NCBI GenBank assembly: GCA_050698735.1 | Contig: JBOHCG010000001.1 | Coordinates: 1-55,963, forward strand | Reading direction: 5' to 3' | Source: Streptosporangiaceae bacterium | Lineage (GTDB): Bacteria > Actinomycetota > Actinomycetes > Streptosporangiales > Streptosporangiaceae | Length of the DNA: 55,963 bases | Shown here: in pieces, positions 24,149 to 46,214 of the stretch | How the letters are laid out: every line of letters begins with the position of its first letter | How positions within the stretch are numbered: position 1 is the stretch's first letter | Made by a program: the position numbers and the translations under genes | The notes under the pieces: generated by a model | Database searches by the model: none | What the model saw: the letters and a program-made list of their open reading frames with translations, nothing else | What the model was told of the DNA's origin: nothing

Positions 24149-24157
24149 GGCTGGGTC

Positions 24158-24718: not shown

Positions 24719-24747
24719 CGGCGCTGGCCTAGCGGGGTGGAGGCGAC

Positions 24748-28266: not shown

Positions 28267-28294
28267 CCACCACCCCGACCCGGAAGTAACCGCC

Positions 28295-28666: not shown

Positions 28667-28688
28667 CCCCGGCCCAGACCCGGCCGCC

Positions 28689-29024
28689 ATGGCCCTGACC
28701 ATCACCGACACGGCCATCATCAGCGACCAGACCGCCCACACCGCCCGGCCGGCACCCGGCCGCCCGCGCGGATGGCACGTGTCCTGGCTGCCCGGCGAGA
28801 CCCTCGACCGCAACACCGCCACCACCGCGATGATCCTGGCCGACATCGCCGGCACCGGCGACATCCGCCCCGGCGACCGGCTCTGGCCTGTCGTCGAACG
28901 CTGGGCCGCCGACCTCAGCCTGACCGGCTCCGACGCCCTTACCCAAGCCTCACAGCCCTCCAACGACACCGGCCGCAACCCGCGGCAAACCACCTGGCAG
29001 CCAGACCTGGAAGCAGGCGACTGA
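28689..29024 (+). CDS. Conserved hypothetical protein, tandem duplicate of 28295-28666
   Basis: MALTITDTAIISDQTAHTARPAPGRPRGWHVSWLPGETLDRNTATTAMILAD. Confidence 0.5.
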   Translation: MALTITDTAIISDQTAHTARPAPGRPRGWHVSWLPGETLDRNTATTAMILADIAGTGDIRPGDRLWPVVERWAADLSLTGSDALTQASQPSNDTGRNPRQTTWQPDLEAGD

Positions 29025-29090
29025 CCAGCCACGCCCAGCGTCACGACGCCGATCTGACCGCATCACCAGCTAGCCGAGCTCCCGAACCCC

Positions 29091-29954: not shown

Positions 29955-30290
29955 GGGCCGCAGCGCGCAGACGGCCCGCACTCGCGGCATTGCTCGTGTC
30001 TTACTTGCTCGCAGCCAGCCTGCAGTGCCCAAGCCAGCAGCATCGCGGGTGACGAGGAAGATCTCACTCCAGTGCCGATACGGGAGCAGCCGTGCCAGCG
30101 CGGCGAACCGCGCCCGGTGTCCGCTGGCTCACCGGACCTTGCCGACGGGCGGCGCAGGACCGCGCTTTCGTGCCGAGCACCAGCAACTCAGCATCCTTCG
30201 CACATGCCCCTGCTGAATAGCGGCACAACAAGACCGAGTATCCGGTGAACCAGCAGGTAGACGATCTTGAGCAGCACCTGGCACGCAATC
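29955..30290 (-). pseudogene. N-terminal remnant of an rve-type (integrase-core) transposase, multiply frameshifted
   Basis: VLLKIVYLLVHRILGLVV...AKDAELLVL...FAALARLLPYRHWSEIFLVT, read across three frames, matches the N-terminus of the transposase at 50465-51549 (MLLTIVYLLVRRVLGLAV..AKDAELLVLRHEN...). Confidence 0.5.
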
Positions 30291-30459
30291 GTCACAGCGC
30301 TGTCCCTGGCCGTTGGCGAACGCGCAGATCGACCATGCAATTGATTATTCGAGTGGCACAAGATGCAATGGAGTAAAGTCGAGTCAGTCCACACTTGCTG
30401 GCAAGGGGACTGTTGAAAGCATTCGTTCGGGAGACCCGGGTGTAGTCGGAATACTTCCG

Positions 30460-31686
30460 CTATCGCCGTCGGCTGGCTTCCCGGAGCAGTTCCCGGTGCT
30501 GGTGGAAGAGGTTCGCTTCGCGAGTCACTTTCATGCATTCGACGAGGTCCGCCGACATTGCCGCGTGGCCGGCGACCGTACGTGAGTGACGGTAGAGGGC
30601 GCGGAGCACCTGAACCCTGCGCAGCGGGGTCAAGTTGTCCAAGGTGGCGGCGGCTAGCCGCAGCCGTGCCGCAAGTTGGCTGGCTTTGCGCAAGCTCCGT
30701 GGCGAGGCGTGGGAAATGTAGATGTTCAGTAGCCGATATTCGGTAGCAACTTGTGCGATAGCGTTCGCAGTGGTGAGGCTGAGGGCGCGGTCTGCCATTG
30801 TTTCTGCCTGGTAGATGGACATTCGCGGAACGGACGCTAGCGCCGTCAGCTCCTGCTCCAGTAGCGACCGCGTCCAGACCTTCGGTTCGTACGAGCCTCG
30901 GAGGAATCCCGTGGCTTGGCGTATGGTGGCCAGAGCTTGGGCATTGAGACCGAGTGTATTGAGTGATACGGCTTCGGCGTGCATGGCGGTGACGCGGAGC
31001 TGAGCTGCCTCGTCGCGCTGCCGCTTGGGGATGTCGCCGCAGGACAATGCGACGAGAGCTCGCCGTGCGTGCCCGAGCGCCTGATCGTGTCGGTCCCACA
31101 CTTGTGCGGTGTCATGAAGGAACATGAGCGCTTGGGTGTATTCGACCGGCGTGCGCATCGGGTCGATGGCCTTGGCCAGCGGGGCCGCTAGGGACCATAC
31201 CCGCGCATACGCGGACCTGTTGGCGGCGGCATCCGGAGAACCCGCCGCGACTTGGTGAACGTCGCCGATCATCGTCAGCGCAGAGCGGGCGGCGTCCAAG
31301 GGCATGGTCGTGGGCGGCCCGTGCTGCTTCGCCGACGCCTTGGCCATGGCGATGTGATAGCGCAGGATGTCACGGCGTTCCGCCTCAGTGCACAGTTCGG
31401 CCGCGAGTTGGCTGGCGCGTTCTTCCGAAGGGGTCTTCAGGAACCGAAAAGTTTCGACGATCTCAAGATCCGGTCTCGTCAGTATGTCGGCCCAGTACGA
31501 CTCTCGCCGCCGTGTTCCCGCAGCGTGCAAGGGCTTCATCAGGAACGAGAGGTATGCCTCGGTCAGGCCGAGGGCCCGCGCGAGGTCTCGCTGCGACCCG
31601 TAATCACGCAGGTAGGCGCGGATCAGGTCCAAGTACATCTGACGGTGCAGAACTCGGAGCCGCAAGGTCTCCGCTGCGCTGCTCAT
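30460..31686 (-). CDS. HTH-containing helical (TPR-like?) protein of unknown function
   Basis: 408 aa. N-terminal YLDLIRAYLRDYGSQRDLARALGLTEAYLSFLM looks like an XRE-type HTH; the rest is alpha-helical. A truncated second copy lies at 43455-43700. Confidence 0.5.
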   Translation of the reverse strand: MSSAAETLRLRVLHRQMYLDLIRAYLRDYGSQRDLARALGLTEAYLSFLMKPLHAAGTRRRESYWADILTRPDLEIVETFRFLKTPSEERASQLAAELCTEAERRDILRYHIAMAKASAKQHGPPTTMPLDAARSALTMIGDVHQVAAGSPDAAANRSAYARVWSLAAPLAKAIDPMRTPVEYTQALMFLHDTAQVWDRHDQALGHARRALVALSCGDIPKRQRDEAAQLRVTAMHAEAVSLNTLGLNAQALATIRQATGFLRGSYEPKVWTRSLLEQELTALASVPRMSIYQAETMADRALSLTTANAIAQVATEYRLLNIYISHASPRSLRKASQLAARLRLAAATLDNLTPLRRVQVLRALYRHSRTVAGHAAMSADLVECMKVTREANLFHQHRELLREASRRR

Positions 31687-31903
31687 ATCGGACTGCCGGA
31701 TCTCGAACTCAGCACGATCTTAACCAGACTGCCGCTTCGAATCGCGTGACGCTGGATTCGACAGCTCATCACGTCAAGCGAGGGAGAGGACGATGGATCC
31801 GGACGGTTAGTAACATCGCGTGCCGCTGGTGTATACATGCCGGGGCCCGGCACCAGCGGTTGGATGGAGCGATAACCTCGCCGGATAGGCTCAGCCCGAA
31901 ACA

Positions 31904-32869
31904 TTAATAGGACCATCGCGCGCCGTAGGCCAAGCCAGTCCGGAGATATTCGTATCGCAGGCGAATATCACCCGCAGCATCGGGCCATACGAGCGCATCG
32001 GGTTCAGCGAAATCATCAACCATTCCGCGCGGCAGGCCGACCATATTCCAGACGCGCGTAGGCTGGGTGTCCGAGCTGAACCGGACGCGGAGATCAAACT
32101 CGTCACAGCGATGTAGCGGCTGAAAAGTATATCTGGGATTGAAAGGCTGATCGCCGGGAACCGTGATTGCCACGCCTACCTCGTGGGCCTCTCCGCGGTC
32201 AAGCGGGTGGGGAAATTGGATGAAATAGCGGAAGTAACTCGTAGAAGGCCGTTCGCAGTGCGCCAGCGATCCGCCGTAGATGACCTCGAACTCCGGCCTT
32301 TGCTTATGTTCACCATCAAGGTCGCTACCCTGTGGACCCGCGATCACAGGCCGAGGAATACTGGTCGAAATGACGAACTCCGTCAGGCCATCGACGTTCG
32401 CGACTACCGTGCGTTCCTCGATAGCGGTCGGCTGCTCTCCGTCGAGTCGCAGCAGTGTCCGGAGCCGGGCTAGGTACCAGCGTCTCGGCATGTACTCGCT
32501 ATCTTCCAAAGCCTGCGCACTCGCTGAGGCCTCGGCAAACCTGATCGCCTCATCGACACGACGTCTGGCGGTGCGTACGTCCCGCTCCAGCCTAGTCGCG
32601 AGCCAGCGCATCCGTTCGTCGAGGAACCTGTGCCGCGCGTCCTGATGGAGAGCCAAGGCCGCTGACAACGCCAATCCCAGGTCTTCCGGCAGGTTCCTGA
32701 CCAACTCATCGAGGAATGCGCGCAACCTGAGCCGGGCCTCCTCCTGACTAGCCAGCGGATCGATACCCGCCAGTGCCCGAAGGGACGGGCCCACACGCTC
32801 TTGCAGGTCACTGGTTATGATCCCACGCCCGCGGCGCAGGCGGCTCAACTCATTGCCAATTGCACCCAT
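31904..32869 (-). CDS. Hypothetical protein (321 aa), paralog of 43717-44889
   Basis: ATG at 32869 chosen from the alignment with the paralog (MGAIGNELSRLRRGRGI / MGALGDELSRLRRGRGI). Helical N-half, beta-rich C-half. No motif I recognise. Confidence 0.5.
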   Translation of the reverse strand: MGAIGNELSRLRRGRGIITSDLQERVGPSLRALAGIDPLASQEEARLRLRAFLDELVRNLPEDLGLALSAALALHQDARHRFLDERMRWLATRLERDVRTARRRVDEAIRFAEASASAQALEDSEYMPRRWYLARLRTLLRLDGEQPTAIEERTVVANVDGLTEFVISTSIPRPVIAGPQGSDLDGEHKQRPEFEVIYGGSLAHCERPSTSYFRYFIQFPHPLDRGEAHEVGVAITVPGDQPFNPRYTFQPLHRCDEFDLRVRFSSDTQPTRVWNMVGLPRGMVDDFAEPDALVWPDAAGDIRLRYEYLRTGLAYGARWSY

Positions 32870-33088
32870 GGCAGAGCTTCCGTTCCCCTCCAAGAGGGCC
32901 CACCAGTCACAGCATGGCATCGCCCGTCCTGGCCAGATTCTGTCACTTCGACCCCAAAATGTCCATCTTTTGACCATGAACAGCACGTCTTCGCGATGCG
33001 ATAATAGCTGCCAAGGTGGGGGTGCATGACACGCTTCATCGTCATGATCAACTAACCCTCCGGCATCGCTAGATGAGGGAGTCGGAGC

Positions 33089-33811
33089 ATGTCAAGCTTC
33101 CAGGAAGGCCGGGCGCAGGGAGAGAAGCTCGGCGGGATGATATTCATCTTCTTCCGCATCGCCTGGTTCTTTCTTAGGATCGCATGGTGGCTTAGCCAGT
33201 TCCTGATCTTCTCGCTTTTCGCAGGCATATTCGCACTCGTCAAGCTCGGTCGGCCAAAGCCAGATATCACTACGGGCTTTGGGCATTTTTCCGAGGATGG
33301 GACGCGGTGGCAGGATCAGCACACCGGTCAGTGGTACCCGATCAGTGAGGAGATCCGGGAACACTGTGTGATCGAGGCGAGCATGGGCGGCCTGGCCTGG
33401 CGGCGGAACGCGCTGTCGCGACTGGTAAAGCGCGGCGCGATCTATCGGTACACGTTTGCCGCGGTTAGCGACGCCAACGCGGGCAGGGCTGTTGAGCCTT
33501 TCGATCAGGAAGAATTCCTGAACGAAGCACGGCACAACATTACACTCGATCACCTCGACCCTGAATATGCGGCAAACGACCCTTACAATCTCAGCCAGAA
33601 CCGTGACGAGGCGGTCAGTGCACTGGACCATCTGGAGGGGCTTCTGACCAATAGGGGATGGGAGCGAGAAGATGATCCGTCGCCCAGCCATTGGTACGCT
33701 AGGAAATACGGCAGGCGCATATGCTGGGACGAGCCGATTCCCGCAGAGGCTGCAACAGCGGAAGCTACAGCCGATGCTCCTATCACGGACGGATCCCCGG
33801 CAACCACCTGA
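33089..33811 (+). CDS. Membrane protein of unknown function
   Basis: Two hydrophobic helices near the N-terminus (GGMIFIFFRIAWFFLRIAWWLSQFLIFSLFAGIFALV). Divergent from 31904-32869. A degenerate second copy starts at 45110. Confidence 0.45.
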   Translation: MSSFQEGRAQGEKLGGMIFIFFRIAWFFLRIAWWLSQFLIFSLFAGIFALVKLGRPKPDITTGFGHFSEDGTRWQDQHTGQWYPISEEIREHCVIEASMGGLAWRRNALSRLVKRGAIYRYTFAAVSDANAGRAVEPFDQEEFLNEARHNITLDHLDPEYAANDPYNLSQNRDEAVSALDHLEGLLTNRGWEREDDPSPSHWYARKYGRRICWDEPIPAEAATAEATADAPITDGSPATT

Positions 33812-34224: not shown

Positions 34225-34833
34225 ATGAACGAGCAAACCCTCTTCCCGCTCGCCGCCGTCCGAGGAGCGGACCCGGCACGCACTGGCGGGCTTCCCGTGG
34301 CCGCCGACGAGGCGTTTTCTTCCGCGGCGAGGATCCCGCTCGATGCGGACTCGTGGGTCGACTACGTCCCGGGCTGGCTCTCCGGTGACCGCGAGCTGAT
34401 GGCAGTGCTACTGGAGCAGGTGGTGACCGAACCGCGGCTCACCGCCGAGTACTCCGTCATCGCCGACGCTCCGCAGCCCGTCCTGCGGTACCTGGCACAG
34501 GTACTGTCAGCGCACTACGGGAAGTCCTACACACGCCTGTGGATGAACTGGTACCGGGACAACAACGACGGCACCGACTGGCACGCCGATCGCCCGGCTA
34601 ACCAGTTGGACGAGGCAGTGATCCCGGTCCTCAGTCTGGGGGCGTCCCGCCGCTTCCTCATCCGGCGGACCGGCGGCCCCGGGGTGAGCAAGGCGATCAA
34701 GGTGCACGGCGGCGACCTGGTTGTCATGGGCGGCCGCTGCCAGAAGGACTACGAGCACACGGTCCCCAAGCAGAAGCAGTCAGCCGGCACCCGGCTCAGC
34801 CTCAACTTCTCAACCGTCGTGCCGCCGAGGTGA
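34225..34833 (+). CDS. AlkB-like Fe(II)/2OG dioxygenase
   Basis: WMNWYRDNNDGTDWHADRP (HxD), GDLVVMGGRCQKDYEHTVPK (distal His) and TRLSLNF (Arg) give the AlkB/2OG-FeII_Oxy_2 pattern. Confidence 0.7.
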   Translation: MNEQTLFPLAAVRGADPARTGGLPVAADEAFSSAARIPLDADSWVDYVPGWLSGDRELMAVLLEQVVTEPRLTAEYSVIADAPQPVLRYLAQVLSAHYGKSYTRLWMNWYRDNNDGTDWHADRPANQLDEAVIPVLSLGASRRFLIRRTGGPGVSKAIKVHGGDLVVMGGRCQKDYEHTVPKQKQSAGTRLSLNFSTVVPPR

Positions 34834-34835
34834 CG

Positions 34836-34985
34836 GTGCCGACGAGAGAGATTCCGCCACTCCCAGGGGGAGCAGCAACCCGGGACCGCATCGTCCAGAC
34901 GGCGGCCGATCTCATGTATATGAAGGGCGTGCACGCCACCACCCTGGACGACGTCTGGGCGGCCACAGGCACCAGCAAGTCCTAA
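34836..34985 (+). pseudogene. N-terminal HTH fragment of a TetR-family regulator, cut after ~49 codons
   Basis: GTG 34836...TRDRIVQTAADLMYMKGVHATTLDDVWAATGTSKS-stop. This is the canonical TetR HTH, but the ligand-binding domain is absent. The break coincides with the start of the 250-bp repeat at 34992. Confidence 0.55.
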
Positions 34986-34991
34986 TTGAGA

Positions 34992-35241
34992 GCCCATAAG
35001 TTTGATCCACCTCGCCCCGGCGAGGCTGAGACCTTTGTGTATTTGCGGTGATCATTTGAGGCTATGTTGGCCTTTGTCGAGGAGGGGTCGGTTACTCTAC
35101 CTCCCGGATCGACTATCAAAGTCTAATGTCCACCTGATTAGGCTGCCGAGCCGGTCTCCTCGACGCGGCGGATGGCGGCCCTGGAGCGTGGCCGGGCGCG
35201 GGCAGGCTAACGGGGTGCGGATGCACCCTGCCGTGATGTGC
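34992..35241 (+). repeat. 250-bp direct repeat, copy 1 (3' end of a DUF4254-like gene plus downstream sequence)
   Basis: About 85% identical by eye to 42200-42448. It reads AHKFDPPRPGEAETFVYLR-stop-SFEAMLAFVEEGSVTLPPGSTIKV, against the intact C-terminus AYKFDPPRPGATETFVHLRRSFEAMLALVEEGSVTLPPASTIKDYCPTD in copy 2. Confidence 0.7.
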
Positions 35242-35305: not shown

Positions 35306-36340
35306 TTAAACGGGAGCATCTCCTGGCTCACTGCGAACCATATATGGGACGCCGTCAACAAAGTGCGGAGAATGCGGACCTCTTGAGTCGACGTTCATCG
35401 TCTTGATCAACCAACGAGTCGCGAGTTGTCCAAGATCTACAACTTCGCTGACCTCTCTGTTGTGCACACAATAGTTGTTGCATATGATCACGAAGTCTCC
35501 CGGCTGGATGTCGAGGCCTCGCTTCACCGCATGGATGGTATTCACGACGTCACGGAGCACGCATTCTGCCTCGGCGTCCAGGCCTTCGGTCCTATTCTCG
35601 GATATGCGAAGACCCCAGGCGGCACTCACCAGCGAATGGACTGGTGGTTCAAGGGGCGTTTGAAATCGGGCTTGCCGCGCCACTGCGAGCGTCGTCGCAT
35701 CCAGTCTGGCGATCACGTCCTTGTTGCTCGCGAACGTGGTGTAGACGGCGTTTGCGCCACCGGAGCGCATTCCGAGCATGTATAGGTAATCGGGTCGGAC
35801 AAAGTGATTTGCTAGATCTCTGTGGAAAGGAATTGGTCCGAGCGTCTTTTGAGGCAGGCTGTCTGCCAAGCCGCGCTTTGGGTAGATGTCATGGAAGACA
35901 TCGCCGTCATTGGCGTTTTGGTACGAAATCCCTGGTGTTCCGGCCAGTTCGGCGTAGAGGGTCAGGAAGCCCTCGGCCACGAACGTTGTTTTCAACGCGC
36001 GCTTCGATAGTACCGGTTCGTCATGATCGAATACTGGTAGCGACAGGTCAATTGGGGTGTTCTTTATCAAACCCGTCGGATTGTCTACAACTGACTGGGC
36101 TCGTCGATGGGTCACGTACTCGCGAAGCCGGGACGGAGTGGCGACGGATTGCGTAATCTTGCGGATTTCGGCGCAGAAGTCTTCATAGCAGCGATATGGA
36201 TTGGCCTTCACTGCTTCAAGAGAATCAACGAGATTGTCGCGTTCCTGGTCGTCCATGATCAAGTCGACCTGCAGCGATGGAATATCGGGCTCTGACACCG
36301 CGCACCCCGGGTAATAGGTTCTGTAGTTGCTATGCGCCAA
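35306..36340 (-). CDS. Clavaminate-synthase/TauD-like Fe(II)/2OG oxygenase (amino-acid/peptide hydroxylase type)
   Basis: 344 aa with a TTG start. GPIPFHRDLANH (HxD) and a distal NNYCVHNRE (His+Arg), with spacing like the AsnO/VioC/CAS-type enzymes. Lower GC than the surroundings. Confidence 0.6.
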   Translation of the reverse strand: MAHSNYRTYYPGCAVSEPDIPSLQVDLIMDDQERDNLVDSLEAVKANPYRCYEDFCAEIRKITQSVATPSRLREYVTHRRAQSVVDNPTGLIKNTPIDLSLPVFDHDEPVLSKRALKTTFVAEGFLTLYAELAGTPGISYQNANDGDVFHDIYPKRGLADSLPQKTLGPIPFHRDLANHFVRPDYLYMLGMRSGGANAVYTTFASNKDVIARLDATTLAVARQARFQTPLEPPVHSLVSAAWGLRISENRTEGLDAEAECVLRDVVNTIHAVKRGLDIQPGDFVIICNNYCVHNREVSEVVDLGQLATRWLIKTMNVDSRGPHSPHFVDGVPYMVRSEPGDAPV

Positions 36341-36784
36341 CAGTACAGCGGTTCTCCAAGTTTTAGCTAGGTTCTAACTTAGCTCGGCTCATGAGTACAG
36401 AGGGCTGGGGACCTTGGTCTTGAACTCGTCCGGGTTGGTGACGCTGGCGGGCCTCACCCGCTTGTGCTTGATGTTCTTCCAGGCCCATCTCGTGCCGTGA
36501 CCCTTGCAGCGGTGCGCTCGGCCAGCATGACCGTCTCGGGGTCAGCGCGTAGAGGTAGCGCAGCAGGTCCCGCACCTGGTCGAAGGTCTGGTCCAGGAGA
36601 ATTGGCTACGGTAGGTCGAGGACGGGGTGCTCAATGCTGGGGTATTCGCGGCGTACGAGGTTGATCCTGCGACAAGCAGGACGCCCACCGGCAGATCACG
36701 CTGAGCCGCAACCGACGCACGCCCGCTCACGATCCATCGCCCGCCAAGATCAATAACAACGGCTTCAAGATCACAGTACAGCCG

Positions 36785-37302
36785 TTACGAAGGGTCGGGA
36801 GTGGCGCGGTGACTCGCTGGTTTTAGGGCCTTAGGCCTTCGTGGCCGCCGGTTTCCCGCTTGCTTGCGCCATCCCAGTGCGTGTCCTTGGCGGGGTCTGC
36901 CCGTTGTCCAGTCCCGCCGGCCTTGAACCGTGCGGTTTTCCGCACACGGCTCACCGGCGCCGTTCACTGTCGGAATTCTGCCTTCCCCCGCTGTCCCGGA
37001 AGGGCCTGGGGGTCGACGACGATTTCCGACAAGACAGCAAGTCCGAGCTGGTCCGGGGACTGGAAGGCGGCGACCGACTAGCCGAACTCCCGTGACCGGC
37101 GGTTGCGCTTGCTGATGAATAGCGCAAGCCTCACCTGCGCGTACCTCATGATCTTCCCGATGCGCGTAGCAGAGTTGCCGAACCGAAGTAAGCGGCCCAG
37201 CCGCCCGGGAACCGGATCAGGTCCTTCGCGGTCCACTTCGGGTCCAGCAGCAGCCGGGGACCTGCGGGCCAATTCCCTGCTCCAGTCGCGGCCGTGCTGC
37301 AT
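36785..37302 (-). pseudogene. C-terminal remnant of a group II intron reverse transcriptase/maturase
   Basis: LLRFGNSATRIGKIMRYAQVRLALFISKRNRRSREFG matches the maturase X-domain pattern YFR.GN....F...D.Y...RL..F..KR..R. Downstream frames are broken. No RT domain is present. Confidence 0.45.
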
Positions 37303-37405
37303 GGCTTTGTCCGCGGGTCAGCTAGTGAAGCTAGACAGCGAGTGGAATCTTTGGGAGAATACACGTATCTCGGCACGTACAGCCCTTTTGGGAGGGGAGA
37401 ACCAG

Positions 37406-37612
37406 ATGCCAACAAGCACACCGACAGGCCTCTCAGAGCGCGTAGCTCGTTTGCGAGCAGGCCTGTCATCTTCCGCTGAAGGTCATGACACGCTCTCGAA
37501 TATCTCTGCTACGGGCAGCGTCGAGGCTGACCAGTCGATCGGGGCCACGTGGCCGCAGGGCTGGGGGCAGGGCTGGGGGCAATACGCTGGCTACGAGGGT
37601 GATTTCGAGTAA
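37406..37612 (+). CDS. RiPP precursor peptide candidate (68 aa) with a C-terminal W-x-Q / Gly-rich repeat core
   Basis: ATG at 37406, 5 nt after GGGAGGGGAGA. Sequence MPTSTPTGLSERVARLRAGLSSSAEGHDTLSNISATGSVEADQSIGATWPQGWGQGWGQYAGYEGDFE. There is a 12-bp tandem repeat, GGCTGGGGGCAG / GGCTGGGGGCAA. It lies immediately upstream of the rSAM/SPASM gene. Confidence 0.65.
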   Translation: MPTSTPTGLSERVARLRAGLSSSAEGHDTLSNISATGSVEADQSIGATWPQGWGQGWGQYAGYEGDFE

Positions 37613-37908
37613 GACGACCCGAGTTGGGCGTGTTTGCCAGAGGCCTCGATTCGAAGACTTGCAAGAGTCTTGGATAGGCGGTCTGGAAGGCGTGCTTCGG
37701 CGCTGCCTCGTTGCGGTCGTGGCGCCGAAGCGAGACGGGCATCCCATTGTCGGCGGGCCGATGTTAGTATCGGCTTGGTTTTGTCGATATTTGGAAAGCT
37801 CGCTATATAAGCTTGACCAGCGCACCCACGCATTAGGCGATCTCCGGACCTACAGAGATCTTCTCTATGTCTTTACTGGCAGATTCCTTAGCCTAGAAGG
37901 GAAGGCTG

Positions 37909-39063
37909 ATGGCCGCCGATGCTCATCAAGTCGTTCACCGGCCCCTTGTTGTATTGCAGCCGACAACCTTTTGCAACATCGATTGCCAGTACTGTTACCT
38001 TCCCGGCCGCTCCAATACGAGGCGGATGTCGGTTGACGTAATTCGCCGGATCGCTGCCGAAGTGCTGGGGACCAAGCTTTACGACGGGGAGATCCACTTT
38101 CTCTGGCACCTGGGAGAGCCGCTGTCGGTCCGTTCTGACTTTTACGAGGAAGCCTTCTCGGAGATTGCGCGCATTAATCAAGCTTATGGCAGAGAATATG
38201 TTCACACGTTCCAGACCAACGCGACACTGATAGATGAGGGCTGGATTGAGCTCATCAAAAAGCATCACGTGCGGATAGGCGTAAGTTTGGATGGGCCGGC
38301 ATTCATCCACGATCGGGAGCGAATAACACGGAGAGGAACGGGTACGCATGCGGCTGTCCTCAGGGGAGTACGACTGCTGCAGGAGCACGGTGTCTCGTTC
38401 GCCGTTATAGCGGTGTTGACGAACTTCACCCTGGATTATCCCGATGAATTCTTCAATTTCTATATCGAGCATGGGATAAGCCGAGTAGGCTACAACATCG
38501 ATGAGATAGAAGGTGTTCATACTTCAACGTCTTTCACGCATCATGAGGCAGTTGCGCGCTACAAGCGGTTCGTAGCTCGCATCATTCAACTGTCCGATTC
38601 GAGTGGCGGCGCCGTGCGGTTTAGAGAGGTGTGGGACAACATGCGCTCGATTGTAATGGGAGCTGACCCGTACAATCTGGCGAACAAGCCCCTACGGATC
38701 CTGAATTTCGATGTAGATGGAAACTTCAGCACCTATTGTCCTGAACTCGTTGCCGCGAAAAGCGACAGGTACGGGGACTTTGTCATGGGAAACATTCTGA
38801 CGAATGGGCTAGACGACCTCCTGACCAACCCGATCTTTCAGTTGGTGAACCGCGAGGTTGAGGAAGGCCTCGCGCTGTGTGAGCGAACCTGTCCGTATTG
38901 GAGTTATTGCGGTGGAGGCGAGCCTTCGAGCAAGTTCTTCCAGTATGGCCGCTTTGACGTTGCAGAGACCACTACTTGCAGGATCCACAAGCAAGCAACA
39001 GTTGACGTTCTGGTTGATTATCTGGAAGCGAAGTTGCCGAGCAGCGTCCAGGGCAAGCTGTGA
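37909..39063 (+). CDS. Radical SAM / SPASM-type peptide maturase (GRRM / cyclophane-forming-like)
   Basis: VVLQPTTFCNIDCQYCYLP (CX3CX2C), GEPL, and a C-terminal Cys cluster YCPELVAAKSDRYGDFVMG ... CERTCPYWSYCGGGE ... TTCRIHK. RBS AGAAGGGAAGG. Confidence 0.85.
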   Translation: MAADAHQVVHRPLVVLQPTTFCNIDCQYCYLPGRSNTRRMSVDVIRRIAAEVLGTKLYDGEIHFLWHLGEPLSVRSDFYEEAFSEIARINQAYGREYVHTFQTNATLIDEGWIELIKKHHVRIGVSLDGPAFIHDRERITRRGTGTHAAVLRGVRLLQEHGVSFAVIAVLTNFTLDYPDEFFNFYIEHGISRVGYNIDEIEGVHTSTSFTHHEAVARYKRFVARIIQLSDSSGGAVRFREVWDNMRSIVMGADPYNLANKPLRILNFDVDGNFSTYCPELVAAKSDRYGDFVMGNILTNGLDDLLTNPIFQLVNREVEEGLALCERTCPYWSYCGGGEPSSKFFQYGRFDVAETTTCRIHKQATVDVLVDYLEAKLPSSVQGKL

Positions 39064-39479
39064 AGGACATGGAGGCGGCGTACAGTCTGCTTGTTGAGCT
39101 GATGGATCGTATATCCTACAAGCCCGGGTACGAATTCGCCCTCGAGAGAGTAAAGGGTGACGTAGCGCGTGTGTCACTTACTTGTAACACGCTGCCGAAC
39201 TCCTACGAACCGACTGCGACAATCGGCTTGACAATCATGAACGGTATCAACCTGCGAACTATTGCGACAGCAGCCGATGCACTTCAGGCGTTTGCTGCGG
39301 TTGTCGCTCGCTTTGAGCTTCATGAGACTGCGGAATTCTTCAAATGTGATGGGCGGACTATATTTGATGCCCACGCAAGGGGAGACAGCTTCGGCGAGTT
39401 TCTTTGGTCCGACTTTGCCAGTCTCGGGGGCTTGTATTTGAGGGCGCTCAAAGACGCCTTGGAGAAACAAGACGAGTAA
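39060..39479 (+). CDS. Hypothetical protein (139 aa) translationally coupled to the rSAM gene
   Basis: GTG 39060 overlaps the rSAM stop (alternative ATG 39069). No recognisable motif. Confidence 0.45.
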   Translation: MKDMEAAYSLLVELMDRISYKPGYEFALERVKGDVARVSLTCNTLPNSYEPTATIGLTIMNGINLRTIATAADALQAFAAVVARFELHETAEFFKCDGRTIFDAHARGDSFGEFLWSDFASLGGLYLRALKDALEKQDE

Positions 39480-39542
39480 GGCGTATGGGAGGCTGCTTGC
39501 GCGCTCGGGGCAATACGGGCCAGCTGTATCTGGGAGGCTCTG

Positions 39543-40490
39543 ATGCGTGACGATGGCACCTTGATTACCATCGTTGGCGGTTACGGGGATGCATTCCTTG
39601 CCCTTCCGAGTATTCGGGAAGTTGCAAGACGTCGCGGTCGCCAGCAGGTATATCTTCTCTGCCCCGAGGCGCATATTTCTGCCTTCTTCGCTGATCTGGA
39701 TCTGAACTATTTGCCGATCCCTCCCGACATGGAGAATGTAGCGGCTACCGACTTGGCTCCTCTTTCCATCCAGGAAGTGATAAGTTTCAACGTTTACTAT
39801 CCATGTGCGGTCGATCATCTGGCTGCAGAAGTATTCGCAAGCGCGCGTTGGCGAGGGTTTTTTGATAGATACGGGCGGTTGATGGTTCGCCCCTCCGCGC
39901 TGGTCAACAAGCACAAGAGAGACCAGTATTTTGAAGTACTTGGTCTGGATCCCACCTACAAACCGATGGACCGCCGCCTGGCATTGAGGCCGGAGAGAGT
40001 GGAGGATATTGCCGCTTTCTGCCTAAAGGAGCGCCCTCCGGGCGGGCGGCGATTCTATACTCTCCATCTTGATACTCAAGATATTAAGATGTGGCCGGTG
40101 GAGTCTTGGGTTACGGTTGTTGCGTACCTATGGAATCGCTGGCGGGCATGGCCGCTCATCATCGGTAAGCCTACCGAGTCATCAGATGCCTTGCTGCAGG
40201 AATTTTCATTTGCCCGGAGTATGTTTTCATATCCAGACGTAAGGGATCAGGTATGCGGCATCTCGGTGGGGCACGCATTCTTGGGCGTAGACTCGATGTT
40301 TGCTCATATCGCTGAGAGCCTTCGGATCCAATCGGTTGTGCTCTTTGGTCCTTTCGACCTGACAGTATGGGGTCCGACTAGCGACACGTCGTTGGCGATC
40401 CAAATGAAGGTGCCGGAGCTTCTGCGGGAGTTGAATCCGGTCGATGTGATTGAAAGCCTAGATGCCACACTGAGTGAGGCTCTTGGGTAG
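39543..40490 (+). CDS. Glycosyltransferase family 9-like (heptosyltransferase fold)
   Basis: N-terminal LITIVGGYGDAFLALPSIREVARR and C-terminal FLGVDSMFAHIAESLRIQSVVLFGPFDLTVWGP match the GT9 pattern (GDxL..xP ... G.DSG..H.A.A...P.V.LFGPT). Confidence 0.6.
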   Translation: MRDDGTLITIVGGYGDAFLALPSIREVARRRGRQQVYLLCPEAHISAFFADLDLNYLPIPPDMENVAATDLAPLSIQEVISFNVYYPCAVDHLAAEVFASARWRGFFDRYGRLMVRPSALVNKHKRDQYFEVLGLDPTYKPMDRRLALRPERVEDIAAFCLKERPPGGRRFYTLHLDTQDIKMWPVESWVTVVAYLWNRWRAWPLIIGKPTESSDALLQEFSFARSMFSYPDVRDQVCGISVGHAFLGVDSMFAHIAESLRIQSVVLFGPFDLTVWGPTSDTSLAIQMKVPELLRELNPVDVIESLDATLSEALG

Positions 40491-40738
40491 GGGGCTGGCG
40501 GTCGAAATGCGGTGACTATCGAACATCTGGAATATTGCCGCACCAAGCGGGACGCGTGCAGATATGATCAGCTCCTGTGTCAACTGGTCTCCTTGATCTA
40601 CAGATCCGGCGCTCGACTGCCTTGTGGCGGGTCGCTTTCGCGAGGCGGTCAGAATCGATTCGTCAGGCGAGCGCTCCGTCGTCGGCGATGACGGGAAAGG
40701 TTCAGTCAGCGAGCAGTCGAAGACAAGAGGATGGCGTG

Positions 40739-41602
40739 ATGGCTGAGGAGAGCGTACTTGCATGGCATTGGTGTCGACGCGATAGGCGTCTGGGATCGAT
40801 AGACCGCCGGGTGGTTCGCGCTGGTGGCGTGTATGACATAGATGGACCAATCGTGCTGTGCAAGCGAGGTCTGCACGGTTGCCGCACGGCTATGCAGGCG
40901 CTCCATTACGCCTCGGGTGACGTGATATGTCGTGTGCGGCTGTCTGGGGAGATCCGCGAGAATTATGACAAACTCGCCGCATCCCGCCGCGAGGTTCTGT
41001 GGTTGGCCGAGGCCGGGGCTACGCTCCACCGGTTCGCCGTCTGGTGCGCTGAGGCCTCGCTCGCTCGGTTGGAGACGAGGGTGACCGTTGATCCCCGGTT
41101 GCACGAGGCGCTGGCGGTGAAATTGCGCTGGGTGGAAGGCCTCGCATCGGACGACGAGCTGGCCGCGGCGTGGGCCGCTGCCAGGGAGGTAGACAGGGAC
41201 GCCGCCAAGGTCCCGGCCTGGACGGAGGCTAGTGACGCACCGTGGGAGGCGGCTAGATCGTCCGCCTGGCTTTCAGCGTGGGACATGGCTTGGATCGATA
41301 CTGGGGCCGCAGTGAGGGACGCAGCCTGGAACGCCGCGAAGGGCGGATCCTGGGGTGCAACGGGGAGGGCTGCTTGGGAGGCTGCCTGGGATGCAGGTGA
41401 GGCTGGCTCAGTGAGGGACGTGGCCTGGAATTCGATCAGGGACGCGGCGTGGGCTAAAGCATGGGACGCCGTGAGGGCGGCCCAGTCTGCGGAGCTTGAG
41501 CGGCGCCTCTTGTCACTCGCTCCCGCGTTGTCTGAGTACACCGCGGATGCTACAGCCACAAGCAGACGGTCCGTGGACGGTGGCACCGGGACGCTTGAGT
41601 GA
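40739..41602 (+). CDS. Hypothetical protein with a C-terminal Ala/Trp-rich repeat region
   Basis: ATG at 40739 after AAGAGGA. N-domain ...IVLCKRGLHGCRTAMQALHYASGDVICRVRLSGE. The C-terminus carries degenerate repeats (AAWAAAREV, APWEAARSSAW, AWNAAKGGSW, AAWEAAWDAG, VAWNSIRDAAWAKAWDAV). Confidence 0.45.
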   Translation: MAEESVLAWHWCRRDRRLGSIDRRVVRAGGVYDIDGPIVLCKRGLHGCRTAMQALHYASGDVICRVRLSGEIRENYDKLAASRREVLWLAEAGATLHRFAVWCAEASLARLETRVTVDPRLHEALAVKLRWVEGLASDDELAAAWAAAREVDRDAAKVPAWTEASDAPWEAARSSAWLSAWDMAWIDTGAAVRDAAWNAAKGGSWGATGRAAWEAAWDAGEAGSVRDVAWNSIRDAAWAKAWDAVRAAQSAELERRLLSLAPALSEYTADATATSRRSVDGGTGTLE

Positions 41603-41797
41603 GACATTGGAGAGGACAAGGCGACGCGCCGCAATACGAGGTCGGTTAAGGTGATCCGGAGCTCAGAGCGCGAGCAGGCAAGCACGTCGACAAGGATTTG
41701 TGGGTTTCTTGCCTTGCGTGTCGAACTGGAACGGAACGAGATCCTGAACGGGTAGTACCATCAGATAGTTGATGATCACATCGCTAGGCTAGGTGTT

Positions 41798-42349
41798 GTG
41801 CCCATGGCCGACTACGACGGAAGCAAGCAGTCCGCCGATTTGGTTAGCCGGTCTGTGGGGCCTGTCCTGGATAAGCTGTCTCATATCTTGGATGGTACGA
41901 GGCGCACTGATGGCGGTGAGATGGCGAGAATTGAACTCCGTCGTGTCGTGACTTGTCTACTACGAGTACACGAAGGGCAGTGGGAGCTTGAGGCATCGTG
42001 CCGAGCGGTCGATGTAAGCGCTATTGAGCTCGGACATCTGAAGCGCGCAATAGACGAATCAAATGCTCGGCGAGTCGCATGCATCAATTACATTGATGAC
42101 GCAATCCGAGAGTACGTGCCTACCGGTGGGCGCGACACGCTCTTGTGGCCCTTGACTGCCGGTCAAATGATCGACAATCTGTTGATAGCCGGATTGAAAG
42201 CCTATAAGTTTGATCCGCCTCGCCCTGGCGCGACTGAGACATTTGTGCATTTGCGGCGATCATTTGAGGCTATGTTGGCCCTTGTTGAGGAGGGGTCGGT
42301 CACTCTACCTCCCGCATCGACTATTAAAGATTATTGTCCAACCGATTAG
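41798..42349 (+). CDS. Hypothetical protein (possibly DUF4254-like)
   Basis: 183 aa. WELEASCRAVDVSAIELGHLKRAIDESNARRVACINYIDDAI resembles what I recall of DUF4254, a family often found next to GT9 genes. Its 3' end is part of the 250-bp repeat. Confidence 0.4.
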   Translation: MPMADYDGSKQSADLVSRSVGPVLDKLSHILDGTRRTDGGEMARIELRRVVTCLLRVHEGQWELEASCRAVDVSAIELGHLKRAIDESNARRVACINYIDDAIREYVPTGGRDTLLWPLTAGQMIDNLLIAGLKAYKFDPPRPGATETFVHLRRSFEAMLALVEEGSVTLPPASTIKDYCPTD

Positions 42350-42448
42350 CCTACCGAGCCGGTCTCCTCGAAACGGCGGATGGCCGCCCCTGGAGCGTGG
42401 CCGAGGGCGGCCCGCTAACGGGTCCGGATGTACCTCGCTGTGATGTGC
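42200..42448 (+). repeat. 250-bp direct repeat, copy 2
   Basis: Aligns with 34992-35241; see that entry. Confidence 0.7.
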
Positions 42449-42585: not shown

Positions 42586-42789
42586 TAGTACAGTCGCGGT
42601 TTTACGTTTAGTGCTGGCGATGTTGCGGTAAGGATTGGTCCCGCATGCCGCACCGGTGACGCTGAGTAACAGGTTTCGGCTGGGCGGCGTAGTTACACGG
42701 GTGAAATTCGGGGCGGCCGTGCCGTGTTGCCTGATGTGTGACCACAAACAACGACGACACGGCCGTACAGGCCAGCATAGAAGACGTGT

Positions 42790-43455
42790 CCGGGTGCTCG
42801 GCGAGGGCGGATGCGCAGGTCAGGGTGGTGCTGGGGCGGGTGATGGCGCAGCGCCGCAGCATGCCGGGTGCACCGGGCACGTGGAGAATTGCGTCACCAC
42901 GGTGTTCTCCGCGTGGGTGGCCACGTCCGGGCAGGCCTGGGCGGACTTCGACGTGTTCATGCCGGAGCGCTGGGAGAAGGACTGGCGGCGGCGCCGGGCC
43001 GCCCGGATCCGGGCGGGCTGGGACACGCGACCAAGCCGCAGCTGGCCATCGATCAGATCGGGCGGCTGCTGGATGCGGGCCTGCCCGCGAAGTGGGCGGC
43101 GTATGCGAGGTGTACGGCCGCAGTGGCGAGCTGCGGCGGTTCTGCGAGTCCAGGAACCTGGCCTATGTGGCGGTCGTCCCCTGCGACTTCCGCGTCACGC
43201 TGCCGTCCGGCTCTGTCATCCGCGCTGACCAGGCGGTGAACGACGCCGTCTTCGAGCGGCGCTCGTGCGGGAACGGGTCCAAAGGCCCCCGGTTCGCGGA
43301 CTGGGCGCTGACCGCCACCGCCAGCCCGCGGCACGTCCTGCTCATCCGCCGCCTGATCTCCCGCCCGGACCAGCTCACCTTCTACCTGTGCTGGGCGCCG
43401 CCAGGCCAGCCCGCGACCATGACCTATTTCATCACCATCGCCGGGCGCAGGTGGT
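42790..43455 (+). pseudogene. IS701-family transposase remnant (multiple frameshifts, both ends missing)
   Basis: Reading across three frames gives ...HAGCTGHVENCVTTVFSAWVATSGQAWADFDVFMPERW..., ...TKPQLAIDQIGRLLDAGLPAKWAAY..., and ...EVYGRSGELRRFCESRNLAYVAVVPCDF...FERRSCGNGSKGPRFADWA...LLIRR...FYLCWAP...ITIAGRRW. Confidence 0.6.
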
Positions 43456-43700
43456 CGGCAGACGTACTTGAAGGCTTCGGCGACCTCGTGGCCCGCTGCG
43501 CAAAGCAGGACGCTCCAATGCCCGGCTTGCCGGCCGTCGGCTGTCAGTCGCAGCGGCTCGAGCAGGTAAGAGGCATAGGCCTGGGAAAAGCCGAGAGCGC
43601 TCGCCAGGTCGCGCTGGGACCGTAGTCGACGAGATAGGCACGGATCAGATCGATGTAGGTCTGCCGGTGCATGAGCCGGTCTAGGTCCCACGACCGGCCG
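43455..43700 (-). pseudogene. 5' fragment of a second copy of the 30460-31686 HTH gene
   Basis: MHRQTYIDLIRAYLVDYG..QRDLASALGFSQAYASYLLEPL aligns with LHRQMYLDLIRAYLRDYGSQRDLARALGLTEAYLSFLMKPL. It contains a frameshift, and the rest of the gene is replaced by the IS701 remnant. Confidence 0.5.
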
Positions 43701-43716
43701 ACGGCGATCTCCCGCA

Positions 43717-44889
43717 TCACCGGGAACTCTGCACAATCTTAACCAGACCACCGCCTCGCGCCGCATGATGCTGGATTCGATATCCCATTACGTCAAGCGA
43801 GGGAGAGGACGATGGACTGGGACGGTTAGCACTATCGCGAACCGCTGGTGTATGCATGCTCGGGGCCCCGGCACCAGTGGTCGGAGGCAGTGACAACCAT
43901 TCCGGATAGACCGAACGCGAACATAAAAAGGACCACCGCGCGCCGTAGGCCAGGCCAGTCCGCAGGTACTGATACCGAAGATGAATGTCACCTGCGGCAT
44001 CGGGCCGCACGAGCGCATCGGAGTCAGCGAAATCATTCACCATCCCGCGCGGCAGGCCGACTATATTCCAGACGCGTGCGGGCAAGTTACGCGAGGCGAA
44101 CCGAATGCGGAGATCGAACTCGTCACAGCGATGCAGCGGCTGATGAGTGTACCGTGGATTGAATGCCTGGCCATCGGGAATCGTGACTGCCACGGCGACC
44201 TCGTGGGACTCTCCCCGGGCAAGCGGGCGCGGGAATTGGATGAAATAGCGGAAGTAGCTCGCCGCAGGCTGCTCATGGCGCGACATCGATCCGCCGTGAA
44301 TGACGCTTACTTCCAGTCGTTGCTTGTGCGCGTCGGTGAGGCTGCCCTGGCGCGGATCCGCGCTCGTAGGACGAGGAATACCGGCCGAAATGACGAACCC
44401 TGTGAGTCCGTGAACATTCGCGACCACCGTGCGCTCCTCGATGGCAGTCGGCTGCTCTCCATCGAGCCGCAGCAGCGTCCGGACCCGGGCCAGGTACCAG
44501 CGGCCTGGCATGTAATCATTAGCTTCCAGAGCCTGCGCGCCTGCTGATGCCTCGGCGAGGCTGATCGCCTCATCGACGCGACGCCTGGCGGTGCGTGCAT
44601 CTCGTTGCAGCCTGGCCGCCAGCCAGCATATTCGCTCGTCGAGGAACCTGTGCCGCACGTCCTCATCGAGAGCCAGGCCCGCCGAAAACGCAAGCCTCAG
44701 GTCCTCCGGCAGATTGCTGGCGAGTTCGTTGAGGAATGCGAGCAACCTGCGGCGGGCCTCCTCCTGGCTTTCGGCCGCATCGATCCCGGCCAGCGCCCGC
44801 AGGGTAGGACCCACGCGCTCACGTAGGTCACTGGCCATGATCCCGCGGCCTCGGCGCAGGCGGCTCAACTCATCGCCTAACGCACCCAT
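43717..44889 (-). CDS. Hypothetical protein, paralog of 31904-32869 with a 69-aa read-through extension
   Basis: Collinear with the paralog up to ...GLAYGARWS. The position matching the paralog's TAA stop is TTA here (43924-43926), so the ORF runs on to 43717. Confidence 0.5.
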   Translation of the reverse strand: MGALGDELSRLRRGRGIMASDLRERVGPTLRALAGIDAAESQEEARRRLLAFLNELASNLPEDLRLAFSAGLALDEDVRHRFLDERICWLAARLQRDARTARRRVDEAISLAEASAGAQALEANDYMPGRWYLARVRTLLRLDGEQPTAIEERTVVANVHGLTGFVISAGIPRPTSADPRQGSLTDAHKQRLEVSVIHGGSMSRHEQPAASYFRYFIQFPRPLARGESHEVAVAVTIPDGQAFNPRYTHQPLHRCDEFDLRIRFASRNLPARVWNIVGLPRGMVNDFADSDALVRPDAAGDIHLRYQYLRTGLAYGARWSFLCSRSVYPEWLSLPPTTGAGAPSMHTPAVRDSANRPSPSSSPSLDVMGYRIQHHAARGGGLVKIVQSSR

Positions 44890-45109
44890 AGTAGTACTTC
44901 CGCTTCCCTCGGAGACGGCCGACCGGCGCGGCATGGCCTGCGCGTCTTGGCCAGATTCTGCCACTTCAGCCACATAATGTCCATCCTTTGACCATGAATA
45001 TCGAGCCTTGGTGGTGCGATAATCGCTGCCAGATGGGGGCTAGATGGCAGGTTCTCCGGTCATGATCGACAACCCCCATCCGGTATTGCTAGATGAGGGG
45101 GTTCGGAGC

Positions 45110-45386
45110 ATGGCAAGCTTCCAGGAAGGCCACGCTCAGAATAGTCCGCCGATACCCGATCGCTTGCTACGGGAGGCCGTCACGCCGCCGGCGACTATTC
45201 GCGGCTGGCCGTTTTTTTGATAAGATTCGCTTCCGCTGGGGAGGCGCTGGTGAAATTGTAGTGGGCATCTCCATCGTGGAGGGCGCTCACAGCGTAATAT
45301 CCGGTATTCTTTTCATCCTGCTAACGTTAGGCGTCACGACGTGGATCTTCACCGGATTCGGCGTCCGAGGTCGATCAACCCCGTGA
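45110..45386 (+). pseudogene. Degenerate second copy of the 33089-33811 membrane-protein gene
   Basis: The upstream region and the first codons (MASFQEGHAQ vs MSSFQEGRAQ) are conserved. The frame stops after 36 codons, and a hydrophobic segment continues in another frame. Confidence 0.35.
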
Positions 45387-45648: not shown

Positions 45649-45694
45649 CATGGTAAGGAGAAGGTCTACGGTTCGATTCCGTAACGGGGCTCCA
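45649..45694 (+). repeat. att core 2: 3' portion of tRNA-Thr(GGU), followed here by CCA
   Basis: The 44 bp are identical to 10853-10896, and C45692 followed by CA at 45693-45694 gives a genomically encoded CCA end. There is no tRNA 5' half upstream. Confidence 0.75.
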
Positions 45695-46214
45695 GGTGAG
45701 GGTAATTTTTCGATCCTGATTTCATATCTTGATTTCAAGATCAAGTGACTAACTATGGCGGTTCGGCTCCAGTCGGCAGCGGGCAAGGTGTGACGTACCT
45801 GGACGCCAGGGCCTTCTGGTCTGCAGTAATGCGTTACGGACAGTCGAGTATGCGGAATTCTGGCGTCGCTCGTCTCCGTGAAACGGACAATGGGTTCGTC
45901 CGGCTAGGTCGCGTCGAGTCGGATTAGCGGAGACCGAGACGATGGGATCGTCTGGGGACGTCCGGCTTCGGCTGCCGTTGCCTGGGTCGTTGTCTCTTGA
46001 GCTGTCACTTCGCTTCTGGGTGAAGCGGACCGCGTCGGACGCGTGCATATGGCGAGGCCGCACGTTGACCGCTGCCCGGGGACAGCCCCGCGCCGGGGTA
46101 CCGAGCATGGCCAGGGCACTAGGCGGCCCGGTACCGCCGCGTCCGCACTTCTTTCAGACAGGCCGGTCAGTGGGCAGACCCGTTGCCTGAGCCGCGGAGG
46201 GAGGAGGCGCTTGT

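Follow-up and report, generated by a model that had tools for sequence, protein, structure and literature searches.

Triceptides form the largest subclass of the cyclophane peptides made by radical S-adenosylmethionine (rSAM) enzymes, and few of them have known tailoring or activity. Fe/2-oxoglutarate (2OG) tailoring of these peptides, made on ribosomes and modified after translation (RiPPs), is known from YhhC and MicC. What defines a triceptide is an aryl-to-C-beta link within an Ω1-X2-X3 motif (PMC11499958), and the maturase OscB links Trp-C7 to the C-beta of Asn or Asp, and Phe-C4 to the C-beta of Asn, between residues i and i+2 (PMC11002830). The locus described here lies in a stretch of 55,963 nt from a Streptosporangiaceae bacterium (contig JBOHCG010000001.1; hereafter the window, to which all positions refer), where genes for a 68-aa precursor, an rSAM enzyme and a 139-aa partner protein are accompanied by genes for a glycosyltransferase (GT), an oxygenase, a DUF7666 protein and a DUF4254 protein. 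Judged by sequence comparison, this island is probably a horizontally acquired triceptide-type RiPP cluster with likely tailoring of its product. The type of system and the GrrM/OscB enzyme family are already known and have been annotated automatically in relatives; what is new is Gln at X3, a probable glycosylation step and a partner related to phage proteins that two triceptide families share.

The island shares with GRRM/OscA-OscB (Nguyen et al. 2020, via PMC11002830) an rSAM enzyme of family TIGR04261 that scores above the cutoff and has no N-terminal RiPP recognition element (RRE) domain, a short precursor directly upstream with several aromatic-X-X units near its C-terminus, and an Fe/2OG-type accessory gene, such as is often found close by (e.g., on a Nostoc plasmid). 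In contrast to the GRRM systems, with their Asn/Asp at X3, the window's clade has Gln there without exception, the precursor matches no curated model, and the HxD…H protein of classical loci (L002, L015, L022 and Nostoc; L001–L039 are the numbered loci and contigs used for comparison) is absent. The window instead encodes a phrog_1540-type partner, a GT9-like GT, a clavaminate-synthase-like (CAS-like) oxygenase, DUF7666 and DUF4254. The YhhA/B/C and FxsB-type systems likewise give three-residue cyclophane RiPPs with an Fe/2OG-type beta-hydroxylase (YhhC), and cyanobacterial-type triceptide clusters with a YhhB/FxsB-like rSAM and an HExxH beta-hydroxylase contain a partner that is ~50% identical to that of the window and, in some cases, a GT9-like gene. 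They differ from the window in rSAM subfamily (the window enzyme reaches 111 bits on YhhB and 90 on FxsB), in the hydroxylase (HExxH versus CAS-like) and in their motifs. Minviopeptin (mic) provides a precedent for densely tailored triceptides, with ring formation first and then tailoring by group transfer and by an alpha-ketoglutarate-dependent non-haem iron enzyme; it departs from the window in its tailoring by ADP-ribosylation and oxidative C-terminal cleavage instead of glycosylation, its PasB/DarE-like rSAM and its YSK, HAS and FTK motifs (PMC12912966). WprA/B/C resembles the window in having three W-P-x repeats and a small (97–103 aa) rSAM-adjacent protein needed for crosslinking, but WprC is a PqqD-type RRE, whereas the window partner is unmatched in Pfam and differs in its fold, and WprB, a member of another rSAM family, joins Trp-C5 to Arg-C-gamma (PMC11851443).

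By the curated family test, the rSAM protein is a member of the GrrM/OscB cyclophane maturases: it scores 405.6 bits on TIGR04261 (cutoff 310), with residues 16–373 covering profile positions 1–362 of 363. The initial annotation had read the precursor and rSAM as a GrrM-type triceptide pair, and this full-length match together with a conserved aromatic-x-Gln precursor family bears that reading out. The same enzyme fell below the cutoffs for the anaerobic sulfatase maturase TIGR03942 (143.8 bits against 349.45), AmcB (285.3/425), XyeB (79.9/450), FxsB (90/370), YhhB (111/445), DynA (135.6/450) and DarE (83.5/650), and matched PF04055 at 73 bits. The CNIDCQYC motif recognized earlier supplies the CX3CX2C cysteines C22, C26 and C29, which are invariant in an 11-sequence family alignment, as are five C-terminal cysteines (C277, C324-x3-C328-x5-C334 and C357). 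These five suffice for one auxiliary cluster and one extra ligand, and the pattern is family-wide; the Pfam SPASM model gave no match at E≤0.01. Homologs at 90% and 74% identity are named GrrM/OscB by NCBI, the nearest named one (90%) being from a Trebonia metagenome-assembled genome (Streptosporangiales). The suggestion that placement in an actinomycete is unusual did not hold, given existing annotations of GrrM/OscB homologs in Solwaraspora, Catellatospora, Actinomadura, Thermobifida, Trebonia and on a Streptomyces plasmid. A search of genome contigs with the rSAM returned distant relatives only (37–43%) and no close genomes; these served as W-x-N/D outgroups.

On comparative grounds the 68-aa ORF is a real precursor, because its motifs and certain leader residues are invariant in 20 homologs, its dN/dS is 0.19 relative to L006 (a homologous contig, 81–86% identical), and 200 Markov shuffles never produced the triple motif. 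Three W-x-Q units occur together once when the window is translated in all six frames. The ORF has the strong ribosome-binding site (RBS) that had been ascribed to it (GGGAGGGGAG, 6 nt before the ATG), ends in ...GATWPQGWGQGWGQYAGYEGDFE and is followed by a gap of 297 nt before the rSAM gene. It comprises a conserved leader (…RVARLR..L.SS..G…LSATGS…AD), a core of W-P-Q-G-W-G-Q-G-W-G-Q and a YAGYEGDFE tail. Four leader residues and W49, Q51, W53, Q55, W57 and Q59 are invariant across the 20 aligned precursors, whose identity falls to 35%. The YAGYE… tail is not conserved beyond the closest lineage, where it co-varies with the presence of the GT9 gene set. Homologous short ORFs precede homologous rSAMs in metagenome contigs and in Solwaraspora sp. 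WMMD937. A promoter-like site lies 45 nt upstream of the precursor start, within a segment conserved with L006, and a hairpin that separates the precursor gene from the rSAM gene may serve as an attenuator. In Solwaraspora sp. WMMD937 (L007, CP120738.1), a cultured strain and a practical source for experiments, the precursor (…ATWEQSWPQSWEQSWEQSW, 9300–9497) and the partner (11107–11520) are both uncalled as genes in the record consulted.

The sister clusters L011, L012, L014, L038 and L039 have contiguous W/F-x-Q triplets in their precursor cores, which leaves the i to i+2 relation as the sole universal element, so the repeated unit is best described as aromatic-x-Gln. Cores of L012 and L014 (rSAM 68–71% identical to that of the window) read W-Q-Q-W-S-Q-W-S-Q, that of L038 (54%) W-S-Q-F-N-Q-W-P-Q and that of L039 (53%) W-S-Q-F-D-Q-W-P-Q. 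Classical GrrM loci have W-Q-D-F-A-D-W-N-N-Y-P-D (L001, 39%), W-D-N-W-G-N-W-N-N (L002, 43%) and W-D-N…W-N-D-S-W-G-N (Nostoc plasmid, 52.6%). The precursor had been described as a generic Gly/aromatic repeat, a description that is replaced here: what repeats is W-x-Q, the YAG/YEG tail is peculiar to one lineage, and Gly lacks a C-beta at which a crosslink could form. As judged from these alignments, aromatic(i)-x-Gln(i+2) in the window's clade is an exact match to the triceptide Ω1-X2-X3 geometry, and the clade is set apart from characterized enzymes mainly by Gln at X3.

Among the accessory genes, that of the 139-aa partner is the most constant companion of the rSAM gene. Translational coupling of the two, proposed previously, is evident from the GTG start at 39060, which overlaps the rSAM stop codon as GTGA. 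The partner matched no Pfam or NCBIfam model, and no sequence relative was found in the PDB. Its AlphaFold2 (AF2) model (mean predicted local distance difference test score (pLDDT) 77; residues 1–95 mostly >80) consists of a helix, three strands, a long helix and a less confident C-terminal helix. A PDB fold search with this model gave nothing significant; a weak resemblance to type III secretion chaperones (template modelling (TM) score 0.4–0.5) is not relied on, and an RRE/PqqD-like identity was rejected, there being no PqqD family match and the alpha-beta3-alpha-alpha order differing from winged-helix beta3-alpha3. The partner does match the PHROG family phrog_1540 and resembles uncharacterized phage proteins at TM ~0.6. 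Word-indexed searches with the partner and the precursor reached close relatives only, and an exhaustive hidden Markov model (HMM) search was used for the wider partner family, which yielded 249 relatives, mostly of 100–120 aa. Residues Y20, E86, H88, E89, E92 and H105 are invariant in 24 sequences with identity down to 21%, and this pattern (Y…E-x-HE-x-x-E…H) hints at a site for metal binding or catalysis and speaks against a merely passive chaperone. Members associated with triceptides carry an additional conserved segment at the C-terminus, G-D-x-F-G-x-F-x-W-x-D-F. A plasmid search found no partner homologs. A distant homolog (27%) at L035 5760–6212, with E-x-HE-x-x-E…PH kept, lies beside SNF2- and UvrD-like helicase genes; this context is phage- or mobile-element-like, so the family is not RiPP-specific.

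The distribution of the partner bears on its place in the pathway. Its gene accompanies the rSAM gene out to 62% rSAM identity, including the Gram-negative-like contexts L009 and L013 as well as Solwaraspora, and its presence in core loci without a GT hints at a tie to the rSAM or the peptide. At L015 (1193–4166), directly after a GrrM-type rSAM, comes a 608-aa protein that combines the partner domain with a GT4 glycosyltransferase, a fusion that hints at a tie between the partner and a glycosylation step; no W-x-Q precursor was found on the 8-kb contig.

The accessory proteins were largely as first annotated. The FHRD and VHNR motifs of the CAS/TauD-like oxygenase align with FHTE and THAR of CS1 and with its metal and 2OG ligands (H-x-D...H-x-R), and the nearest solved relatives are CS1, L-lysine 3-hydroxylase (KDO1), AsnO, VioC and CmnC. 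The protein belongs to no equivalog (GntD, 56.9 bits against 345), and the Pfam TauD match is below threshold; comparison with L006 places its start probably at GTG 36298, giving 330 aa. The GT9-type assignment is supported by PF01075 (22.3 bits, gathering threshold 22) and by the signature motifs G-x-G-D…L-P, H-x-x-T-x3-K-x-W and FLGVDS…H…FGP, which do not vary among three lineages. WaaC is the nearest PDB entry (E=1e-3, weak), and the protein falls in none of the lipopolysaccharide (LPS) heptosyltransferase I/II/III equivalogs (best 26.5 bits, cutoff 185.3). What had been called an Ala/Trp-repeat protein is a DUF7666 protein (PF24703, 32.1 bits against 27) with C-terminal Ala/Trp-rich helical repeats, probably starting at ATG 40739, and the DUF4254-like protein matches PF14063 at 47.9 bits (threshold 27); no PDB relative of the latter was found. 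L006 and L021 both have an AlkB-like 2OG gene as upstream neighbour of the precursor, a conserved arrangement, but the membership of this gene in the pathway is uncertain because its codon usage is host-like (GC content at third codon positions (GC3) 0.87).

Gene order from precursor through rSAM, partner, GT9 and DUF7666 to DUF4254 recurs in L006, L016–L021 and L023, and partly in L008; among such close relatives synteny is weak evidence on its own. Beyond them, GT9-like genes lie beside triceptide-type rSAMs in three independent lineages, namely the window's clade, the cyanobacterial L022, L027 and L028, and the gammaproteobacterial L002. In sister Ω-x-Q clusters, a gene for a 277-aa GT-A-like protein with an E-D-D motif and weak GNT-I and Glycos_transf_2 matches takes the place of GT9 and is translationally coupled to the rSAM gene. 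The association of GTs of three folds or families with such rSAMs may represent convergent evidence for peptide glycosylation. The idea that accessory genes tailor the peptide thus gains comparative support from the recurrence of GT9 in three lineages, the GT4-partner fusion and the GT-A-like gene coupled to the rSAM, with hydroxylation and glycosylation standing as predictions. Ribosomal peptides glycosylated by a dedicated GT are known in mycofactocin and the glycocins. Their transferases (MftF and SunS) are GT2-family enzymes acting in a different precursor chemistry with no cyclophane, unlike the window system.

Low-GC cyanobacterial-type clusters were also observed at L022 (4397–10420; similar in L024, L028 and L030), where a small peptide ending in …AWSDFSSHTTN occurs with a YhhB/FxsB-like rSAM, an HExxH beta-hydroxylase, the partner and, variably, GT9-like, sulfotransferase-like and HxD…H proteins.

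A pathway can be proposed from these observations. The 68-aa precursor would present a helical-looking conserved leader and a core of three Trp-x-Gln units to the GrrM/OscB rSAM, which would cleave SAM reductively and take a hydrogen from the third residue's side chain, by analogy with OscB at Gln C-beta. That carbon would then be joined to the indole of the Trp two residues upstream, so that three strained three-residue cyclophanes would form, each with a loss of 2 Da (6 Da in total). The partner would act with or just after the rSAM, as a metal-dependent factor or as an adaptor passing the peptide to tailoring enzymes. In the actinobacterial lineage, the GT9-like GT and the CAS-like Fe(II)/2OG hydroxylase would probably decorate the product, and the hydroxylase may supply the acceptor hydroxyl; DUF7666 and DUF4254 could have accessory or self-protection roles. 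The atoms joined, the occurrence and site of glycosylation and hydroxylation, the role of the partner and the bioactivity of the product are what we infer in this scheme.

Several observations weigh against a tailored triceptide cluster of this kind. No NCBIfam model matched the window precursor or six related precursors at E≤10, and this includes the rSAM-associated Gly-rich repeat model that the initial annotation had proposed as a test of the peptide, the presence of that model in the searched release being unconfirmed. In the literature covered, from which the primary OscB and actinobacterial triceptide papers are excepted, Gln at X3 is not among the characterized OscB substrates. The island has no evident protease or exporter gene, is rearranged and is flanked by mobile-element remnants. 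The nearest relatives of the CAS-like oxygenase are amino-acid beta-hydroxylases that act on free amino acids and not on peptides, and the PF01075 match of the GT9-like protein is marginal. Finally, the GT9, DUF7666, DUF4254 and CAS-like oxygenase genes are confined to the closest lineage, core-only loci without them exist (L007, L009/L010/L031/L032 and L013), and L008 has a split (frameshifted) GT9 gene.

These last points would fit a triceptide core system in which the four genes are unrelated passengers of a mobile or conflict island. DUF4254 is moreover absent from L008, the oxygenase has been relocated in the window with no apparent harm, DUF7666 matches phage families and is weakly Imm5-like (PF21805, 17.5 bits, threshold 25), and TIR, CHAT, NACHT-WD40, PIN and transposase genes are abundant in the neighbourhoods. 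Such an origin of the accessory genes is nevertheless unlikely: GT9-like genes recur beside triceptide rSAMs in three unrelated lineages with different precursors, a partner-GT4 fusion (L015) and an rSAM-coupled GT-A-like gene occur elsewhere, the precursor YAGYE tail co-varies with the GT9 set, and the genes are closely packed on one strand, have a low GC3 in common and show purifying selection.

A second alternative accepts the pathway and questions its chemistry, the rSAM acting on W-x-Q by something other than a Trp-aryl to C-beta cyclophane, e.g., through a bond to Gln C-gamma or C-alpha, in the Gln(i)-x-Trp(i+2) direction, through an ether or C-N bond, or by epimerization. Regiochemistry does vary among related enzymes (WprB, Trp-C5 to Arg-C-gamma; TqqB, Ser-O to Gln-C-alpha; PMC11851443). 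In DarE and XncB the outcome can be switched by the X3 residue, the window's subclade conserves Q-x-W to the same degree as W-x-Q, and R46, L68, F101, W242 and T356, invariant in 11 Ω-x-Q rSAMs and different in three W-x-N/D enzymes, divide the two groups, a division that serves as a lead only. Against this stand the full-length match above the GrrM/OscB cutoff and the contiguous-triplet sister loci, which preserve aromatic-x-Gln only, and they make a different chemistry distinctly improbable. Topology is reportedly uniform in OscB-family chemistry, going by the title of a 2024 OscB paper.

The clade would extend the substrate rule for triceptides to X3 = Gln. It also constitutes a natural series of clusters in which a similar core occurs with GT9-like, GT4-fused or GT-A-like transferases, offering a route to testing cyclophane glycosylation. 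A bolder and more doubtful proposal is that the products of the aromatic-x-Gln clade are the first triceptides to be glycosylated, their Trp/Phe-to-Gln cyclophanes being decorated by GTs from at least three families, and that the 139-aa protein of a phage-borne family binds metal and is a new pathway component, for example an adaptor delivering the cyclized peptide to the GT or a leader-processing hydrolase. The literature covered, with four primary triceptide papers lying outside it, held no mention of a W-x-Q motif, a glycosylated cyclophane RiPP or a heptosyltransferase/GT9-linked RiPP, and no informative mention of DUF4254. The analysis flags a small protein common to two unrelated triceptide enzyme families and to phages; its practical value lies in a prioritized target for heterologous expression, and its conceptual value is moderate.

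The coordinates of the island genes and associated elements are listed in Table 1; every ORF named in the initial annotation was found in the window's ORF list at its place. The low-GC island described there was recovered in part: GC is 0.54–0.60 at 35–41 kb compared with 0.65–0.76 elsewhere, but the low-GC zone is wider than proposed (~30–46 kb). GC3 of island genes is 0.58–0.63, in comparison with 0.8–0.9 in flanking or typical window genes. This low GC3 and the occurrence of closer-than-expected relatives in non-actinobacterial contexts indicate that the island was acquired horizontally.

Table 1. Features of the island and its margins (positions in the window)
Feature	Position	Strand	Remark
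AlkB-like 2OG-Fe(II) oxygenase (PF13532) gene	34225..34833	+	
Duplicated DUF4254 3' end and ~100 nt downstream	34985..35241	+	86% copy; rearrangement scar
Clavaminate-synthase-like Fe(II)/2OG oxygenase gene	35306..36298	-	mechanical ORF extends to 36340
Sigma-70-like promoter match TAGACA-17-TG-GAGAAT	37332..37360	+	consensus match only
Precursor peptide gene, 68 aa	37406..37612	+	
Terminator-like hairpin, then T-rich tract	37754..37777	+	consensus match only
rSAM gene, 384 aa, GrrM/OscB-family	37909..39063	+	
139-aa partner protein gene	39060..39479	+	phrog_1540 superfamily
GT9-like (GT-B) glycosyltransferase gene	39543..40490	+	
DUF7666 protein gene	40739..41602	+	mechanical ORF begins 40577
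DUF4254 (PF14063) protein gene	41798..42349	+	
Second copy of 257-nt direct repeat	42193..42448	+	native DUF4254 3' end and downstream sequence

Relative to L006 and L021, the segment 34986–36414, with the last 155 nt of DUF4254 and the convergent oxygenase gene, now separates the AlkB-like gene from the precursor in the window. The direct repeat of 257 nt (copies 86% identical; Table 1) is what this rearrangement left behind as it carried the oxygenase gene upstream. Two paralogous modules in direct orientation, 77% identical and 12 kb apart (31532–33118 and 43555–45139), bracket the island, each with a minus-strand protein of 360 or 418 aa that matched no family and with the first part of a 240-aa protein. 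It could be argued from this rearrangement and duplication, from ~900 nt of extra spacer upstream of the precursor, and from the adjoining unannotatable sequence at 42.4–43.7 kb and paralogous modules that the cluster is decaying and no longer expressed in this genome, as the leftover of a transferred island. Such decay is very improbable, as all eight island ORFs are intact and full length, and the RBS and the precursor upstream region with its promoter-like site are conserved despite the rearrangement. All genes are under purifying selection relative to L006 (dN/dS 0.08–0.31: rSAM 0.08; GT9 0.10; partner 0.13; DUF7666, CAS-like oxygenase and AlkB-like gene 0.21 each; DUF4254 0.31). Synonymous divergence (dS) from L006 is uneven, being 0.68–0.89 for rSAM, partner and GT9 and 0.36–0.43 for precursor, oxygenase, DUF7666, DUF4254 and AlkB-like genes, which may reflect mosaic recombination inside the cluster.

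A mycofactocin-like cofactor or small molecule, trimmed from the peptide at a later stage, could be read from the combination of an rSAM, a small partner and a GT, from oxygenases able to oxidize Trp and from the failure to see an exporter or immunity transporter, but is extremely improbable, given that mycofactocin and PQQ models are not among the best matches of the rSAM, the partner is not PqqD/RRE-like by Pfam or fold, three repeated motifs are typical of multi-ring RiPPs, and the loci are of scattered, mobile occurrence and lack linked dehydrogenases.

The tailored triceptide cluster, which remains the preferred reading, sits in a window that appears to span one or two integrative/conjugative-type elements. 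Two diverged Prim-Pol gene modules (74–79% identical; 2081–5331 and 26495–29873) are present, and a TraG/VirD4-like coupling protein of a type IV secretion system (T4SS), a tyrosine integrase and an IS4 transposase are encoded nearby (239–1858, 9457–10707 and 54138–55271). Assignment of 42738–43625 to an IS701-type transposase remnant was unsupported by Pfam or tblastx and was dropped. Plasmid DNA searches with the island and with the 42.4–43.7 kb segment gave no match, Rfam and tRNA scans gave none either, and PADLOC assigned no defence system to the island proteins, returning only generic viperin-like and 2OG-domain matches.

Further diverged repeats were found at 10853–11315 versus 45649–46112 (direct, 75%) and at 29993–30364 versus 50751–50381 (inverted, 73%). 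A 950-aa WD40 protein with internal tandem repeats (~65% identical units; 46432–49284, minus strand) lies beside a PIN-domain protein (49462–50214, plus strand), and homologous islands elsewhere adjoin NACHT-WD40-trypsin, TIR and CHAT genes, a conflict-system-like neighbourhood. An 849-aa protein with a 2OG-FeII_Oxy_3 domain (11387–13936) and a gene run at 16624–25854 (AMP-binding enzyme, aminotransferase, aldose epimerase and SIS-domain protein) may belong to another small-molecule pathway. Lastly, a protein of ~270–357 aa with GLH-x-D and H-D-G-(C/S) motifs and no family match, absent from the window's island, accompanies classical GrrM/YhhB-type clusters (L002 10935–12008; L015 381–1196 and 4163–5008; L022 9017–9919; L036 3593–4441) and may represent an unrecognized oxygenase family.

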